Source: Escherichia coli
Lineage (GTDB): Bacteria; Pseudomonadota; Gammaproteobacteria; Enterobacterales; Enterobacteriaceae
NCBI RefSeq assembly: GCF_044647545.1
Contig: NZ_CP172818.1
DNA: 64,000 nucleotides
Direction: 5' to 3' (one strand)
Shown here: positions 1,785 through 61,264 of the stretch, in pieces
How positions within the stretch are numbered: the stretch's first letter is position 1
How the letters are laid out: every line of letters starts with the position of its first letter
Program-made: the position numbers and the translations under genes
Notes under the pieces: generated by a model
Databases searched by the model: none
What the model was told of the DNA's origin: nothing
What the model saw: only the letters and a program-made list of their open reading frames with translations

Positions 1785-2240
1785 ACGACCTCAATTCCAC
1801 GGGATCTGGTGGCGTTTAAAGTGTGTGGGCATTTTACGGGAAGGTTACATTACTGTAAACATGATTAAATTCCTGTTACTTGGATTTGGCTTCCAGGTCA
1901 CATATGTTGCAAAACATATCGGATTGATTTTAAGAAGCTGTTGCAAAAGGGCGTTATAACAAAAGGGGAGTGCAGAAGGAGTCTGGGCGGGCAATTGGTA
2001 TAACCAATGCGAAATAAAACAATTATTTAACAAATAATTATCATTAAGGTGACAACTTGGTAGTGAGAAAATAAAGACTCATTAGCTGAATCGTGTAAGA
2101 AAAATAGAATTCATAAATGGCGTCAATAATTTCCAGACGCTAAGCCGCACAAAAGAACAAATATTAATAAGCGATGCTGATGTTTATTTAGCCGTAATAA
2201 TTACGGCGAGTGATTACTACAGCTAAATAATATTTACAGA

Positions 2241-3716
2241 TTACGTCAGATGCGTTTTTCGTAGCGCCAGATAATCCAGTAAACCACCAAGCACGACGCC
2301 AGAAAGGGCGACTAAAACCCCGACTTCCAGCAGAGCAGGCAGGAAAGAGAAGTGCGTCAAATCCAGCGCGTCCATCGTCAACAGCAGTAACCACACGGCC
2401 AACAGGCTGACGCCCGCCGCCAGTGTCCACATGGCAAAGGCATAACCTGCCGGATATTCGGTACGGGAGATAAAGTTGTCATTTACTCGTGTATATTCAA
2501 GCGTCTGGCGACAAATCAGCAGTAAAATAAGCCCTGGTACGGCAGCGGCGACGGAGAACAGATAGAATGTCGACCAGCCGTGTGCTTCAACAAACCAACC
2601 CGCCACGGGGCCGACATAAACTCGCCCTACAGCAGAAAGCGCTGAGAGCAGGGCAAATTGAGTAGCGGAAAATGACTTATTACACAGCGTCATTAACAGC
2701 GCGACAAAGGCTGATGTACCCATCCCGCCACAGAGGTTTTCGAAAAAGACGGCTGCACCCATGCTGTAGAGATGCTTATCAGTAATCGACAGCAGCCAGT
2801 AACCGGCGTTAGATGCACCTTGTAAAATGCCGAAAATCAGCAGTGCACGGAACAGCGACAGGCGCTGCATCAAAATCCCACCGTACAATGCGCCAACAAT
2901 GGTCGCCAGTAAGCCAAGCGTTTTGTTAACCACGCCTACTTCACCCGCATCAAACCCGACGCCGCGAATCAAAAACGTGGTTGTCAGGCTCATAGCGAAT
3001 GCGTCGCCCAGCTTATACAGCACGATAAGAAGCAAAATAAGCCAGGCATTATTGCGACCAAAGAAATCGCGCAGAGGTGCAACAACCGCTTGTTCCAGCG
3101 TTTTGGGCACAGGAATGGTGTCGGTGGGTTCTGGTGCAAGCAACGTCGCGATAATACAGGGGATCAACAGCGCCGCCATCAACCAGTACATGCCCTGCCA
3201 GCCCAGCCATTTATCTGCCAGCCACAGGGCTAAGCCGCCGGAAACCAGCATCCCTAAACGGTAACCCAGCACGCTGATTGCCGCGCCCGCACCACGTTCT
3301 TCTGCCGGGAGCACATCGGTTTTCCATGCATCGAAGACAATATCCTGGGAGGCAGAGCAAAAAGCGATCACCACCGCCAGTGCCGCCATCCAGCGGAGCT
3401 GGGTGCCTGGTTCGAGAAAACCCATCGCCGCAATGGCGACTAATAACAGAATTTGCGTGGCGAGCAGCCAACCGCGCCGCCGCCCGAAAAATGGGGGCGT
3501 GTAGCGGTCCATCAGTGGTGACCAGAGGAATTTAAAAACGTAAGCCTGGCCTACCAGAGAGAAGAAACCAATGGTTTTAAGATCGATATTCTCGACCGTC
3601 ATCCAGGCCTGTAAGGTGCCGGACGTCAGGGCGAGCGGTAGCCCGGAAGCAAAACCCAGAATCAGCAATATGGCTGAACGTGGCTGTTGAAAAATACGTA
3701 AATATTGACTGGACAT
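2241..3716 (-). CDS. ampG: Muropeptide (anhydromuropeptide) permease, MFS
   Basis: 491 aa polytopic membrane ORF recognised as AmpG. Confidence 0.95.
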   Translation of the reverse strand: MSSQYLRIFQQPRSAILLILGFASGLPLALTSGTLQAWMTVENIDLKTIGFFSLVGQAYVFKFLWSPLMDRYTPPFFGRRRGWLLATQILLLVAIAAMGFLEPGTQLRWMAALAVVIAFCSASQDIVFDAWKTDVLPAEERGAGAAISVLGYRLGMLVSGGLALWLADKWLGWQGMYWLMAALLIPCIIATLLAPEPTDTIPVPKTLEQAVVAPLRDFFGRNNAWLILLLIVLYKLGDAFAMSLTTTFLIRGVGFDAGEVGVVNKTLGLLATIVGALYGGILMQRLSLFRALLIFGILQGASNAGYWLLSITDKHLYSMGAAVFFENLCGGMGTSAFVALLMTLCNKSFSATQFALLSALSAVGRVYVGPVAGWFVEAHGWSTFYLFSVAAAVPGLILLLICRQTLEYTRVNDNFISRTEYPAGYAFAMWTLAAGVSLLAVWLLLLTMDALDLTHFSFLPALLEVGVLVALSGVVLGGLLDYLALRKTHLT

Positions 3717-3759
3717 GGGCGTCTACAGGCCCGGCTTGCACCGGGCCAGAGGGCAGAAA

Positions 3760-4338
3760 TTAACGCGCGTTCTGCTTGATGAATTCGTGGATGCTGGTGT
3801 CCTGAGACATATCAGCGATGGTATCGGTCAGCACACTGTTAACCGCATCGGCGATATTTTTGTTGGAGGCCTGGAACGCACCTTCAACGTTGTAGCTGGC
3901 ACGATAGTTTTTGGTCATTTTGTTGCCATTCTGCGCGGTAGCGATGATAGCGATATCCGCTTTGGTGGCGATGTTATAGCGCACGTTGCCCTGGGACACG
4001 TCAGCATACAGTTGGCTAACGATGATTTGCAGATTAACCGGGCCATTCGGACCAACCATGTAACCACGCGCGGTCATCTGTTTTTCCAGCACTTCTTGCA
4101 GCAGGAAACGCAGATCGCGGGAGGCGGTCAGGGTAACGATTTGATTATCGCGGGTGACTTTTGCCAGCGCCTGATCGGTACGCTGATCGGCACCATTAAT
4201 GCTTACGGTGACGCCCATCAGGCTTGGATCCTGCTGTGGCAGTGTTATCGTCGGTGAAACTTCAATAGTTGTTGGCGGTTTTGCGCATCCTGCAAGCATA
4301 AACAGAGCAACTAACGGGAAGAGGATTTTTTTGAACAT
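3760..4338 (-). CDS. yajG: Lipoprotein YajG
   Basis: Track ORF 3760..4497 is 5'-extended; real start taken at internal ATG giving MFKKILFPLVALFMLAGC (lipobox), 192 aa. Confidence 0.88.
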   Translation of the reverse strand: MFKKILFPLVALFMLAGCAKPPTTIEVSPTITLPQQDPSLMGVTVSINGADQRTDQALAKVTRDNQIVTLTASRDLRFLLQEVLEKQMTARGYMVGPNGPVNLQIIVSQLYADVSQGNVRYNIATKADIAIIATAQNGNKMTKNYRASYNVEGAFQASNKNIADAVNSVLTDTIADMSQDTSIHEFIKQNAR

Positions 4339-45130: not shown

Positions 45131-47005
45131 ATGAAAGGACAAGAAACTCGTGGTTTTCAGTCAGAAGTGAAGCAGCTTCTGCACCTGATGATCCATTCTC
45201 TCTATTCCAATAAAGAAATCTTCCTGCGTGAGCTTATCTCTAACGCCTCCGATGCGGCGGACAAGCTGCGTTTCCGCGCGCTTTCTAACCCGGACCTGTA
45301 CGAAGGTGATGGCGAACTGCGCGTTCGTGTCTCTTTCGATAAAGACAAGCGCACGCTGACCATCTCCGATAACGGCGTGGGGATGACCCGCGACGAAGTG
45401 ATTGACCATCTGGGGACTATCGCTAAATCCGGCACCAAATCATTCCTCGAATCCCTGGGTTCTGACCAGGCGAAAGACAGCCAGCTGATCGGTCAGTTTG
45501 GTGTTGGTTTCTACTCTGCGTTTATCGTGGCCGACAAAGTGACCGTGCGTACTCGCGCGGCAGGCGAAAAACCAGAAAACGGTGTTTTCTGGGAATCGGC
45601 TGGTGAAGGTGAATACACCGTTGCCGACATCACCAAAGAAGATCGTGGTACTGAAATCACCCTGCATCTGCGTGAAGGCGAAGACGAGTTCCTCGATGAC
45701 TGGCGCGTGCGTTCCATCATCAGCAAATACTCCGACCATATCGCGCTGCCGGTAGAGATCGAAAAACGCGAAGAGAAAGACGGCGAAACCGTTATCTCCT
45801 GGGAGAAAATCAACAAAGCGCAGGCGCTGTGGACTCGTAACAAGTCGGAAATCACCGATGAAGAGTACAAAGAGTTCTATAAACACATCGCCCACGACTT
45901 TAACGATCCGCTGACCTGGAGCCACAACCGCGTTGAAGGTAAGCAGGAGTACACCAGCCTGCTGTACATTCCGTCTCAGGCACCGTGGGATATGCGGAAC
46001 CGCGATCATAAACACGGTCTGAAACTGTATGTTCAGCGTGTGTTCATCATGGACGACGCAGAACAGTTCATGCCGAATTATCTGCGCTTCGTGCGTGGTC
46101 TGATTGACTCCAGCGATCTGCCGCTGAACGTTTCCCGTGAAATCCTCCAGGACAGCACGGTAACGCGTAACCTGCGCAATGCGCTGACCAAGCGTGTGCT
46201 GCAAATGCTGGAAAAACTGGCGAAAGACGACGCGGAAAAATACCAGACCTTCTGGCAACAGTTTGGCCTGGTACTGAAAGAAGGTCCGGCGGAAGATTTC
46301 GCTAACCAGGAAGCGATCGCCAAACTGCTGCGTTTTGCTTCTACCCATACCGATTCTTCTGCGCAGACCGTATCTCTGGAAGACTACGTTTCCCGCATGA
46401 AAGAAGGGCAGGAGAAAATCTACTACATCACCGCAGACAGCTATGCGGCAGCGAAGAGCAGCCCGCACCTGGAACTGCTGCGTAAGAAAGGCATCGAAGT
46501 TCTGCTGCTTTCCGACCGCATCGATGAGTGGATGATGAACTATCTGACTGAGTTCGACGGTAAACCGTTCCAGTCGGTGTCTAAAGTTGACGAGTCGCTG
46601 GAAAAACTGGCTGACGAAGTTGATGAGAGCGCGAAAGAAGCGGAGAAAGCACTGACTCCGTTCATCGACCGTGTGAAAGCCCTGCTCGGCGAGCGCGTGA
46701 AAGATGTCCGTCTGACTCACCGTCTGACCGATACGCCAGCGATTGTCTCTACCGACGCGGACGAAATGAGCACCCAGATGGCGAAACTGTTTGCCGCAGC
46801 GGGCCAGAAAGTGCCGGAAGTGAAATACATCTTCGAACTGAACCCGGATCACGTACTGGTGAAACGTGCGGCAGATACTGAAGATGAAGCCAAGTTCAGC
46901 GAGTGGGTAGAACTGCTGCTGGATCAGGCGCTGCTGGCAGAACGCGGCACGCTGGAAGATCCGAACCTGTTTATTCGTCGTATGAACCAGCTGCTGGTTT
47001 CCTGA
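45131..47005 (+). CDS. htpG: Chaperone HtpG (Hsp90 family)
   Basis: 624 aa ORF recognised as HtpG. Confidence 0.97.
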
Positions 47006-47009
47006 TGTC

Positions 47010-47049
47010 ATGCCGGATGACCTTTTTGTCATCCGGCATTTTTCTTTTC
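47010..47049 (+). terminator. Rho-independent terminator after htpG
   Basis: 12-bp stem ATGCCGGATGAC / GTCATCCGGCAT followed by TTTTCTTTTC. Confidence 0.85.
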
Positions 47050-47830: not shown

Positions 47831-47958
47831 TCAAGCCGCAGCAGATCTCTCGGGCAGGTCTGCTCATCCTCCTCAGGCAATACCTCTTACAGCAATTAGT
47901 TCTTCTTCTTCACTTTTCCGCTACAATTATCAACAAGTTGAATCGATAAGAGGCGGTA

Positions 47959-48921
47959 ATGCGTCAAACAAAAACCGGTATCCTGCTGGCAAACCTGGGT
48001 ACGCCCGATGCCCCCACACCTGAAGCGGTAAAACGCTATCTGAAACAATTTTTAAGCGACAGACGTGTGGTTGATACCTCACGGTTGTTATGGTGGCCAT
48101 TGCTGCGCGGCGTGATTTTGCCGCTGCGTTCGCCGCGTGTGGCGAAGCTGTATGCTTCTGTCTGGATGGAAGGTGGCTCGCCACTGATGGTTTACAGCCG
48201 CCAGCAACAGCAGGCGCTGGCGCAACGTTTACCGGAGACGCCCGTGGCGCTGGGAATGAGCTACGGCTCGCCATCACTGGAAAGCGCCGTAGATGAACTT
48301 CTGGCAGAGCATGTAGATCATATTGTGGTGCTGCCGCTTTATCCGCAATACTCCTGTTCAACGGTCGGTGCGGTATGGGATGAACTGGCACGCATTCTGG
48401 CGCGCAAACGTAGCATTCCGGGGATATCGTTTATTCGTGATTACGCCGATAACCACGATTATATTAATGCACTGGCGAACAGCGTACGTGCTTCTTTTGC
48501 CAAACATGGCGAACCGGATCTGCTGTTGCTCTCTTATCATGGCATTCCCCAGCGTTATGCAGATGAAGGCGATGATTACCCGCAACGTTGTCGCACAACG
48601 ACTCGCGAACTGGCTTCCGCACTGGGGATGGCACCGGAAAAAGTGATGATGACCTTTCAGTCGCGCTTTGGGCGGGAACCCTGGCTGATGCCTTATACCG
48701 ACGAAACGCTGAAAATGCTCGGAGAAAAAGGTGTAGGTCATATTCAGGTGATGTGCCCGGGCTTTGCTGCGGATTGTCTGGAGACGCTGGAAGAGATTGC
48801 CGAGCAAAACCGTGAGGTCTTCCTCGGTGCGGGCGGGAAAAAATACGAATATATTCCGGCACTTAATGCCACGCCGGAACATATTGAAATGATGGCTAAT
48901 CTTGTTGCCGCGTATCGCTAA
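47959..48921 (+). CDS. hemH: Ferrochelatase
   Basis: 320 aa ORF recognised as HemH. Confidence 0.95.
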
Positions 48922-49877
48922 AGCTGAGCGGTAAAGAACTGAGCGCCGTCGCGAAGAGCCTCGTCGGCGGTTTTCATCATCCGTGAATAATGCAAAAAGG
49001 CGTGCAGCGTGCCTGGGTAGAGTTTGAACTCACAGGGCTGCTGATGCGCCGCTAACGTCTGGTAAAGCAGACGGCTGTCATCCAGCAGCGGATCGAACTC
49101 CGCCCCGGCAATAAAACAGGGCGGAACTTCGCGAGTGAGATCATTATTAAACAGGCAGTAATACGGCGACTCGCGGTCCGCGTCGTTGCTTAAATACGCC
49201 TCTTCATACATCTGTAAATCCTGTTGCGTTAAGCCATCCCAGACACCGCCCAACAGACGACGAGTCACGGAATCCCGTAATCCGTAAAGCCCATACCACA
49301 GCAAAACGCCCGCAACTTTACCGCAATCGATCTGTTTATCACGCAACCACAACGCACTGGCGAGCGCCAACATGGCACCTGCGGAATCACCGGCAAAGCC
49401 AATGCGGGACATATTGATTTGATAATCTTCCGCCTGCTGGTGGAAATAACAACAGGCAGCCACAATTTCCTCTATCGCTTGCGGAAAACACGCTTCAGGT
49501 GAAAGGGTGTAATCAATGCCAATCACCGTACATTGGCTGTAGCTTGCCAGCAGGCGCATGATGCGATCGTGGGTATCAAGATTGCCGAGAATAAAACCGC
49601 CGCCATGCAAATAAAATAGCGTCGCCGGGCTATCTGGCTGCGGACAAAAGAGACGTGTTTCCACCTGCCCATATTTTGTTGGAACCATGTAAGCTCTGGT
49701 TGCCATTTCTGGAGCGCCCGCATTCCAGAATCGGCGCTCAAGCGTGTAATGCTGTCGTTGCTCAGCAATCGTTCCCGTTGCGGGCCAGGGCGGTAAATCC
49801 GGCTGAAGAGTATTCACAACGGTCTTCATTTCAGCAGAAATAAGGTCCAGAACGGGTAATTTGTTTTCCGGCTTCAT
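48918..49877 (-). CDS. aes: Acetyl esterase (HSL-family alpha/beta hydrolase)
   Basis: 319 aa with HGGGF oxyanion motif and GDSAG nucleophile motif; 3' end overlaps hemH stop by 4 nt. Confidence 0.95.
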
Positions 49878-58379: not shown

Positions 58380-58751
58380 ATGAAACAGGCAACAAGAAAA
58401 CCGACGACACCCGGAGATATTCTTCTCTATGAATATCTGGAACCGCTCGATTTGAAAATCAATGAGTTAGCAGAGTTACTGCATGTTCATCGTAATAGCG
58501 TCAGTGCACTGATCAATAATAATCGTAAACTCACCACTGAAATGGCATTCCGTCTGGCGAAAGTTTTTGATACCACAGTCGATTTTTGGCTAAACCTCCA
58601 GGCGGCAGTTGATCTTTGGGAAGTTGAAAACAACATGCGTACCCAGGAAGAATTGGGACGGATTGAAACAGTGGCTGAATATTTGGCACGCCGTGAAGAG
58701 CGTGCAAAAAAGGTCGCGTATATGCGCCACCCTAAAGCAGTGCATCCGTAA
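58380..58751 (+). CDS. ybaQ: XRE-family HTH protein, HigA-like putative antitoxin
   Basis: 123 aa ORF with central HTH (LKINELAELLHVHRNSVSALINN); recognised as YbaQ; start taken from the track, and my recollection of the annotated length (113 aa) is not reconciled with this ORF. Confidence 0.85.
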   Translation: MKQATRKPTTPGDILLYEYLEPLDLKINELAELLHVHRNSVSALINNNRKLTTEMAFRLAKVFDTTVDFWLNLQAAVDLWEVENNMRTQEELGRIETVAEYLARREERAKKVAYMRHPKAVHP

Positions 58752-58759
58752 TGATGTAC

Positions 58760-61264
58760 TTATTCCTTCGGTTTAAATCGCAGCAATCGGTTGGCGTTAC
58801 TCACTACGGTAATCGACGAGAGCGCCATTGCCGCTCCGGCAACCACCGGGTTAAGCAGCGTACCGGTGAACGGCCACAAAATACCGGCGGCGACCGGAAT
58901 ACCAATGCTGTTGTAGATAAACGCACCGAGCAGGTTCTGCTTCATATTGCGCAGCGTTGCGCGGGAAATCGCGAGCGCATCTGCAACACCCATCAGGCTA
59001 TGGCGCATCAGGGTAATCGCCGCGGTTTCAATGGCAACATCACTGCCGCCACCCATCGCAATACCGACATCCGCCTGAGCCAGCGCTGGCGCGTCGTTAA
59101 TGCCGTCGCCCACCATTGCCACCTGACGTCCTTCACTTTGCAGACGTTTGATCGCTTCGGCTTTACCGTCCGGTAGCACCCCGGCTATCACCTCATCAAT
59201 CCCTGCTTCTTTGGCGATCGCATTGGCGGTGGTTGGGTTATCCCCGGTTAGCATCACCAGACGATATCCCGCTTTATGCAGGCGTTGCAGCGCCGCCACG
59301 CTATCACTACGCAACGGATCGCGTACAGCCAGCAGGGCTACCGCTTTCCCGTCAACCGCCAGCAGCACAGGCGTTGCCCCTTGCGATGCCTGAGCTGAAA
59401 TATCTGCCTCAATCGCTTTAGTATCAACTTGCTGGTCATTTAACAGCGCCTGATTACCCAGCAATAACGCATGACCTTCAGCTTCACCGCTCACGCCCAG
59501 CCCGCGCAATGTGCGGAAACCGTTGACCTGCGGCAGCTGCATATCACCTGCTTTATCGAGGATCGCTCGTGCCAGCGGATGGCTGGAACCTTGCTCCAGT
59601 GCCGCCGCCAGACGCAATGCCTGCGCTTCATCAACATCAGCAAACGTTTTCACTGCGACAACCTGCGGCTTCCCTTCGGTCAGCGTCCCGGTTTTATCGA
59701 ACACGACGGTGTCGAGCGTACTGGCGCGTTGCAGCGCGTCAGCGTCCCGCACCAGCACGCCAAACTCAGCCGCCCGCCCGACGCCCGAAATAATCGACAT
59801 CGGCGTCGCCAGTCCCAGCGCACACGGACAGGCAATAATCAGCACCGTGGTGGCAATCACCAGGGTATAGACAATTTGCGGTGCCGGACCAAAGAAATAC
59901 CAGATTGCCGCACTGACAAGCGCAATAACCACTACTACCGGCACAAATACGGCTGAGATTTTATCCGCCAGTTGACCGATTTCTGGCTTGCTGCTCTGGG
60001 CCTGTCGCACCATGCGAATGATCCGTGACAGCGTAGTATGGCTGCCGACCGCACTGGCGCGAAACAGCACACTGCCGTCCTGTACCACTGTCCCGGCATG
60101 GACGCTATCGCCTTCGCCTTTTTGCTGCGGGATTGGTTCGCCCGTCAGCATCGCTTCATCCAGCCACGCTTCGCCCTGGGTAATTTCACCATCTACCGGC
60201 ACCCGATCACCCGTCGTCAGGCGCAGCAACATACCTGGCTGAACATCTGCCAGCGGCACGTTTTTTTCACCTTCGTTGGTGACCAGGCGCGCCGTCGGTG
60301 GGGTTAAATCGAGTAATTTCTCCAGCGCCTTAGAAGAACGCTGACGTGCGCGCGCTTCCAGCATATGACCGAGATTAATCAGACCGATAATCATCGCACT
60401 GGCTTCATAGTAAAGATGTCGCGCTTCCATCGGGAACCACTGCGGCCACAGGTTGACGCTCATTGAATAGAGCCACGCCACGCCCGTACCCAGCGCCACC
60501 AGCGTATCCATCGTCGCTGCACCGTTCAGCAGGCTTTTCCATGCGCTGCGGTAAAAATGGCCGCCGGCGAAAACCATTACCGCCAGGGTTATCAGGCCGA
60601 TAACCAACCACAGGCTGCGGTTGTCGGCGGTGACCATCATGTTATCGCCGATCATCCCCCAGACCATCACCGGGATACCCACCGCCAGTGCGACAATCGC
60701 CTGCCAGCGGAAGCGCTTCATCGTAGCGACGGCGGTTTCTTGCTGGCGCTCGCGGCGTTTAGCGTCATCTTCAATCGCTTCCGCGCCGTAGCCCGCTTTT
60801 TCCACCGCCTGCACTAAATCTTGTGGGGAGGCACTGCCCATCACCAGCGCAGTACGCTCCGCCAGGTTTACCCGTGCCTGAGTGACGCCCGGTACGCTTT
60901 GCAACGCATTTTGTACGCGGGTGACACAGCTGGCGCAGCTCATGCCGCTCAGCAGCAACTGCTGGCTGTCATCGTCATCGGCGGTCGCTGCCGGAAGCGC
61001 CTCAGAAACCGCTGTCAGTGCTTCCGACGGGATTGATGACTCCGCCAGCGGTTTAGCCTTTGGGTGGCTTACAGATGCGTCATAACCCGCTTGTTTGATG
61101 GTTTCGATCAGCTGTTCTGCACTGGCAGTCCCGGTAACGTGCGCTTCAGTGACAGACACATCCGCCTGCTCAACATCCGGGCGCTGTTCGAGACTTTCTT
61201 TCACGCGTTTAACGCAGTGACCGCAGGACAGGCCGTCCAGGGTCAGGTCGATAGTTTGTGACAT
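58760..61264 (-). CDS. copA: Cu(I)-exporting P1B-type ATPase
   Basis: 834 aa; two N-terminal CxxC metal-binding domains (GLSCGHC, GMSCASC), CPC in TM6, DKTGT phosphorylation motif. Confidence 0.97.
61057..61063 (-). promoter_or_regulatory. Candidate copA programmed -1 frameshift heptamer (C CCA AAG) yielding the CopA(Z) chaperone
   Basis: Minus-strand CCCAAAG at codons His-Pro-Lys (HPKAKPL), about codon 69-70, directly after the first metal-binding domain; placement follows the published CopA(Z) frameshift as I recall it. Confidence 0.6.

Follow-up and report, generated by a model that had tools for sequence, protein, structure and literature searches.

Gene Content and Geometry of the Junction

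The convergent genes hemH and aes meet tail to tail within the 64,000-nucleotide stretch of Escherichia coli DNA analysed here (RefSeq assembly GCF_044647545.1, contig NZ_CP172818.1), hereafter the window. The hemH gene, encoding a ferrochelatase of 320 amino acids, occupies positions 47959..48921 of the plus strand according to the open reading frame list, the RefSeq annotation and tblastn matches, and closes with the stop codon TAA at 48919-48921. The aes gene, encoding an acetyl esterase of 319 amino acids, occupies 48918..49877 of the minus strand in both the open reading frame list and RefSeq, and closes with TAG, the complement of 48918-48920. Direct reading gives GCG TAT CGC TAA for the plus strand at the end of hemH and GCT CAG CTT TAG for the minus strand at the end of aes. 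Both stop codons lie inside a single tetramer, CTAA at 48918..48921, which belongs to the two coding sequences on their respective strands; the genes overlap by 4 nt, and bases 48919-48920 are common to both stops. The first-pass annotation of this DNA, which was made from the letters alone, had named the genes hemH and aes and had placed the two stop codons at exactly these positions. Direct reading, the open reading frame list and RefSeq agree with it on both stops, and the latter two agree with it on the names.

The same 4-bp overlap is present in the RefSeq annotation of E. coli FDAARGOS_497 and of K-12, with hemH at 2040..3002 and aes at 2999..3958 in locus coordinates. Residues 1-319 of Aes correspond end to end to the solved E. 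coli Aes structure (4KRX/4KRY), and tblastn matches to HemH reach residue 320 in 16 genomes, the same number in which both reading frames show homology up to the last residue. On these comparisons, the overlap of hemH and aes is not a gene-calling artefact.

Two genuine genes on opposite strands, with their 3′ ends facing and sharing 4 bp, place this locus among the 4-bp convergent coding-sequence overlaps of prokaryotes. Lillo and Krakauer (2007) counted 58 convergent overlaps in E. coli, for which 4 bp was the commonest length, and described CTAA, TTAA, CTAG and TTAG as the four tetramers able to end two opposite genes. The stops of hemH and aes interlock in the manner of that class, in CTAA in E. 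coli and in TTAA in Salmonella, and nothing of substance sets the locus apart from it; the one local detail is a within-species polymorphism between an overlap of 4 nt and one of 26 nt, described below. Within the window, hemH-aes is the sole overlapping pair among nine convergent pairs, the other eight being spaced 8-76 nt apart.

Variation of the Junction across Genera and within E. coli

The gene order htpG-adk-hemH, followed by convergent aes and then gsk-ybaL, is found in six genera: Escherichia, Salmonella, Citrobacter, Pseudocitrobacter, Trabulsiella and Shimwellia. A scan of genome contigs with the Aes protein returned eight loci, all from Escherichia or Citrobacter, and the other genera were reached by protein search and contig look-ups. 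Aes homologues also occur at other loci with no adjoining hemH, in [Enterobacter] lignolyticus, Edwardsiella and Proteus.

Across 16 genomes the stop-to-stop spacing ranges from -26 to +2 nt. A spacing of -4 is found with CTAA in E. coli, cryptic-clade genomes, E. whittamii and C. sedlakii, and with TTAA in Salmonella. The longest overlap, -26, is shared by E. albertii and E. marmotae, with Shimwellia (-23) and Pseudocitrobacter (-15) between. At the other end of the range, the stops abut (0) in a Citrobacter metagenome-assembled genome and are just separated in Trabulsiella (+1) and C. amalonaticus (+2). Tight packing is therefore conserved across the six genera and its exact form is not: judged from the sequences compared, the absence of a spacer is a conserved feature wherever hemH and aes adjoin, and the exact interlock of the stop codons is not. 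The first-pass annotation had named an earlier in-frame stop in related strains as the finding that would overturn it, and that search came back empty, with none of the 16 genomes carrying an earlier hemH or aes stop that opens a terminator-sized spacer. The C-terminal tails of both proteins vary between genera, Aes in its final 4-8 residues and HemH in its final 4-6.

Within E. coli, the 1-kb stretch over the junction is 100% identical between the window and strain FDAARGOS_497; outside the junction the window differs from that strain by indels. At least 80% of this 1-kb stretch is present in 5,422 of 5,426 complete E. coli genomes. The standard junction, scored at a minimum of 95% identity over 101 nt, is carried by approximately 5,150 of the 5,426 (~95%). 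About 260-274 of them (~5%) carry an allele with a 13-nt deletion. In the alignment, this allele has lost the 13 nt between two TAAAG direct repeats of the plus strand at 48919-48923 and 48932-48936 (element 48919..48936). The hemH end CGC TAA is kept and the aes frame is shifted, such that aes extends 26 nt into hemH; the resulting Aes has 322 amino acids and a tail of ...FFSDRLQQD or similar, in agreement with the RefSeq annotation of strain ST1193. The same 13-nt deletion allele is found in E. albertii and E. marmotae.

The E. coli genomes with the deletion allele, E. albertii and E. marmotae all carry the flanking sequence AATCGAG in place of AACTGAG. This common flank suggests one old or exchanged haplotype, as judged from the aligned sequences, instead of repeated slippage.

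Interruptions of aes itself were also encountered. In E. coli OkiPb01713 an IS3-family element splits aes into two annotated pseudogene fragments, and the hemH/aes junction is unchanged. In the E. albertii type strain NBRC 107761, aes is 970 nt long, has nine stop codons in its translation and is split by tblastn into two matches; it has the appearance of a frameshifted pseudogene, next to an intact hemH. From these sequences, aes is apparently dispensable in some lineages, with the junction intact there.

The variety of spacing, together with the variable C-terminal tails, fits the stop-codon-mutation model of Lillo and Krakauer, a simple model that those authors found adequate for convergent overlaps. 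By this model, the overlap would arise as stop codons drift within the C-terminal tails of HemH and Aes, which are under little constraint, and the tail-to-tail packing of two unrelated functional genes could then persist as a cost-free arrangement.

Termination of the hemH Transcript

A hairpin on the plus strand at 48944-48971 (GCCGUCGCG...CGUCGGCGGU, followed by UUUCAUCAU) was considered as an intrinsic terminator for hemH and rejected. Its z scores of -0.9 and -0.7 are no better than those of shuffled sequence, it is missing from the output of the terminator scan, and its U-run is lost in Salmonella. Neither the Term-seq list of Adams et al. nor the LB sheet of the TRS study contains a 3′ end at this plus-strand position.

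Published mapping places the hemH-strand end farther downstream, inside aes. The LB RNAtag-seq sheet of the TRS study (Nat Commun 2023, Supplementary Data 3) contains a plus-strand terminus at MG1655 499223-499232, labelled ‘aes Antisense’, for which the longest U-run is 2. The 52-nt fold sequence given for this terminus is an exact match to window positions 49083-49134. Fold sequences in that study end at the terminus, as checked on the row for the thrL attenuator, and the end was placed at 49134, at a distance of 213 nt from the hemH stop. The hemH 3′ untranslated region, drawn to this published mapped terminus, spans 48922..49134 of the plus strand (213 nt) and is antisense over its full length to the 3′ third of aes. 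Directly upstream of the mapped end lies a plus-strand stem-loop, CCGCCCC...GGGCGG, at 49099..49125, with no U-tract after it. The stem-loop region folds at -17.6 kcal/mol (z -2.23) and is weakly conserved outside E. coli.

Supplementary file 2 of Adams et al. (2021) reports a bicyclomycin-sensitive Rho region on the same strand at MG1655 499332, classed as ‘antisense aes’, where bicyclomycin raises the downstream reads from 24 to 522 (Rho score 4.07, p 6e-10). Conversion to window positions used an offset of 450,096, obtained from an entry of Adams et al. in which a 3′ end precedes the hemH start by 116 nt. The region falls near window 49236, 315 nt beyond the end of hemH, a coarse position given that it was located with 800-nt windows. 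It coincides with a C-rich, G-poor stretch of the plus strand at 49180..49380 (GC skew -0.30 to -0.33), which lies downstream of the hemH stop and is hence untranslated. Both marks of Rho dependence are thus present for hemH: read-through upon bicyclomycin treatment, from the published data, and C-rich, G-poor untranslated RNA with no hairpin followed by a U-tract, from the composition profile and the mapped end.

Taken together, these observations indicate that hemH lacks a working intrinsic terminator and that its RNA traverses the last third of aes in antisense orientation and is ended by Rho. RNA polymerase would pass the hemH stop and continue antisense into aes, Rho would end the transcript approximately 300-400 nt downstream at the C-rich stretch, and the stable hemH RNA would end at the stem-loop 213 nt past the stop. 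By analogy with the model of Dar and Sorek (2018), in which Rho-dependent 3′ ends are trimmed to a protective stem-loop, we infer that the Rho-ended hemH RNA is trimmed by exonuclease back to the stem-loop, leaving the end at 49134. The hemH end resembles that model in falling after a stable stem-loop with no U-tract, and in having a bicyclomycin-sensitive read-through region and a stretch richer in C than in G downstream of it. It differs in that the stem-loop lies antisense within a coding sequence and shows poor conservation beyond E. coli, and in that the trimming step is here assigned by that analogy.

A Candidate Terminator for aes within hemH

On the opposite strand, the terminator scan returned a hairpin with a U-rich tail at 48838..48885, a candidate terminator for aes. 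The stem extends from 48885 to 48848 of the minus strand and the tail, CGUAUUUUUU, from 48847 to 48838. The hairpin begins 32 nt after the aes stop and lies within codons 297-310 of hemH. Its stem is a stable one of 15 pairs, five of them G-C; an 83-nt stretch containing it folds at -23.6 kcal/mol (z -2.76 relative to shuffles), and the 38-nt hairpin taken by itself has a folding energy of -17.5 kcal/mol in the window strain and of -22.7 kcal/mol in K-12. The tail has five U in its first eight bases, and its U6 run is offset by 4 nt from the extended stem, a non-canonical placement. The hairpin is retained in Escherichia, Citrobacter, Trabulsiella and Pseudocitrobacter; by our reading of the alignment, Salmonella has a shorter form of it. 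Conservation of the U-rich tail is limited to Escherichia, Salmonella and Trabulsiella.

A covariation check found the stem to be nearly invariant, with changes from G-C to G-U only and no compensatory pairs. For this reason the hairpin was assessed by synonymous-site diversity and by synonymous recoding instead of by covariation. Among 16 orthologues, the 13-codon window over the hairpin has the lowest synonymous diversity in hemH, 0.22, compared with a median of 0.36 and a 5th percentile of 0.26. The recoding test, run on the codon table of the validated open reading frame, found the native K-12 hairpin to be more stable than 99.3% of synonymous recodings, the most extreme value of 43 tiled windows. 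In four other species the native hairpin is more stable than 95.5-98% of recodings, and in the window strain it is more stable than 89%. Recoded sequences still fold at about -12.7 kcal/mol, and most of the hairpin structure is consequently forced by the protein sequence.

Mapped 3′ ends at this position were sought in the same two published data sets. The curated Term-seq list of Adams et al. holds no 3′ end on either strand between MG1655 498800 and 499399, and the TRS LB RNAtag-seq sheet holds no minus-strand terminus between MG1655 497941 and 501435. It may be that aes is too weakly expressed to yield a mapped 3′ end, and the absence lowers the claim of a terminator without excluding it. 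From its sequence features, we infer that the hairpin at 48885-48838 is an aes terminator or a pause hairpin. Transcription of aes would most likely stop at this conserved hairpin and its U-rich tail, which lie 32-80 nt into hemH.

A precedent exists in the work of Lillo and Krakauer, who found predicted Rho-independent terminators for 23 of the 116 genes that form convergent overlaps in E. coli. Any terminator in such an overlap must sit in the coding sequence of the partner, and the aes-strand hairpin inside hemH fits this description. It departs from that group in having no mapped 3′ end at the hairpin and in the 4-nt offset of its U-run from the stem.

Transcript Overlap and Competing Interpretations

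The first-pass annotation had also argued that, with no intergenic space for a terminator, the convergent transcripts of hemH and aes must overlap. The argument follows by logic, and it is supported by the ExcludonFinder survey, by the TRS end at 49134 and by the Rho region. With no spacer, the end of transcription of each gene lies in its partner. Terminators are not absent from the locus; they are located within the coding sequence of the partner gene, the aes one being a predicted terminator. When both genes are transcribed, their RNAs would be complementary over approximately 300 nt (about 48838-49134), and this complementarity accounts for the listing of the pair as a convergent excludon in RNA-seq surveys. 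Across 58 MG1655 RNA-seq samples, ExcludonFinder (NAR 2025, Table 1) detected 165 convergent excludons in half or more of them, and hemH-aes is one of these.

On these published data, hemH and aes are convergent neighbours with overlapping transcripts, as in the excludon concept of Sesto, Toledo-Arana and Lasa. Two differences should be noted. Most excludons catalogued by ExcludonFinder overlap in their 3′ untranslated regions across a spacer, with a mean intergenic distance of 95 nt, whereas the coding sequences of hemH and aes themselves overlap. The class is, furthermore, defined by mutually exclusive expression and RNase III processing, whereas the evidence for hemH-aes is one of transcript overlap.

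We consider it highly probable that ordinary tail-to-tail packing, with each transcript ending inside the partner gene, is the explanation of this junction. The alternative with the best standing is that the overlap is a regulatory excludon acting through polymerase collision or through RNase III cleavage of the ~300-bp duplex, as when OxyR-induced hemH would silence aes. The hemH 3′ untranslated region does cover the last third of aes, the tight packing is kept in six genera, and hemH belongs to the OxyR regulon; its transcription is thus inducible, and under peroxide stress it could conceivably act on aes in antisense. The presence of the pair in the ExcludonFinder list, in half or more of the samples, points the same way, but such a listing is nearly automatic for overlapping coding sequences and says nothing on effect. 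The length of the overlap, moreover, varies freely, Aes homologues in [Enterobacter] lignolyticus, Edwardsiella and Proteus reside elsewhere without hemH, and the IS3-split aes of one E. coli and the frameshifted aes of the E. albertii type strain leave hemH and the junction intact. A literature search returned no study of a functional link, reciprocal expression or RNase III processing for hemH-aes. On balance we regard a regulatory role of the overlap as unlikely. If the antisense RNA were regulatory, heme synthesis under oxidative stress would be tied to an esterase, a modest finding.

A more elaborate form of regulation could be imagined, in which the junction has been selected for dual use. 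Codons 297-310 would then serve both as a conserved ferrochelatase segment and as the aes terminator, and the OxyR-inducible 3′ untranslated region of hemH, at least 213 nt long, would act as an antisense RNA lowering aes under peroxide stress. We give this proposal slightly less credence again than regulation by the overlap as such.

Less probable by a clear step is that head-on polymerase collisions at a pause hairpin, the ‘overlapping bidirectional terminator’ of Ju et al. (2019), replace the Rho-dependent and intrinsic mechanisms. That class is described for hundreds of E. coli convergent pairs and requires a hairpin in the overlap region, and the palindrome at 48848-48885 folds on both strands (-13.7 kcal/mol on the plus strand). 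This hairpin, however, precedes the hemH stop, and ribosomes translating hemH would unfold the copy in the hemH transcript; the mapped end of the hemH strand, at 49134, is 250 nt beyond the hairpin. Read-through at hemH is sensitive to bicyclomycin, whereas collision terminators are described as Rho-independent; both genes, in addition, appear weakly expressed, at tens to hundreds of reads per 800-nt window.

That HemH or Aes truly ends earlier, making the overlap an annotation artefact, has a next to negligible chance of being correct: no point was found in its favour, the mispredictions sometimes seen among long overlaps (background: PMC2478687) concern start codons, stop codons are fixed by the reading frame, and homology to the last residue in 16 genomes, the full-length Aes crystal-structure sequence and identical RefSeq ends all oppose it.

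As an instance of ordinary tail-to-tail packing, the hemH-aes overlap is real, unexceptional and already known, through standard annotation, through a described class and through a published excludon list. Its importance is low, the class of 4-bp convergent overlaps having been analysed statistically since the 2000s. The present analysis adds the positions of the transcript ends, the conserved hairpin within hemH and the 4-nt/26-nt polymorphism. The locus offers a clean worked example of how transcription ends without a spacer, by a Rho-dependent end inside the partner in one direction and a probable embedded hairpin in the other. It also shows the ease with which an overlap can change, a 13-nt slippage deletion having taken it from 4 to 26 nt in ~5% of strains.

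Neighboring Features in the Window

Another convergent pair in the window has been drawn closer together in this strain. At 58749-58762, the stop codon TAA of ybaQ, which encodes a HigA-like antitoxin, lies 8 nt from the complement of the copA stop. The corresponding ybaQ/copA spacer of FDAARGOS_497 measures 57 nt and contains a GGATGC...GCATCC hairpin. In the window, 19 nt that include the usual TAG of ybaQ are missing; with this stop lost, the gene continues to the next one, a live example of stop loss tightening a convergent pair.

Upstream of hemH, the adk-hemH spacer is 128 nt long in the window (47831-47958) versus 235 nt in K-12. The K-12 spacer has an extra G+C-rich, repeat-like insert and a hairpin, GGCCGGAUAUUCAUUCGGCCUUUU, at which the adk 3′ end was mapped (MG1655 497941). 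At the site of this hairpin the window strain has a different sequence, and the adk terminator is therefore not the same in all strains. A further Rho region listed by Adams et al. lies at MG1655 498060, five bases into hemH.

Finally, an open reading frame of 530 amino acids at 45440-47032 of the minus strand lies antisense to htpG (45131-47005). RefSeq annotates no gene there, and it is probably a chance antisense open reading frame.
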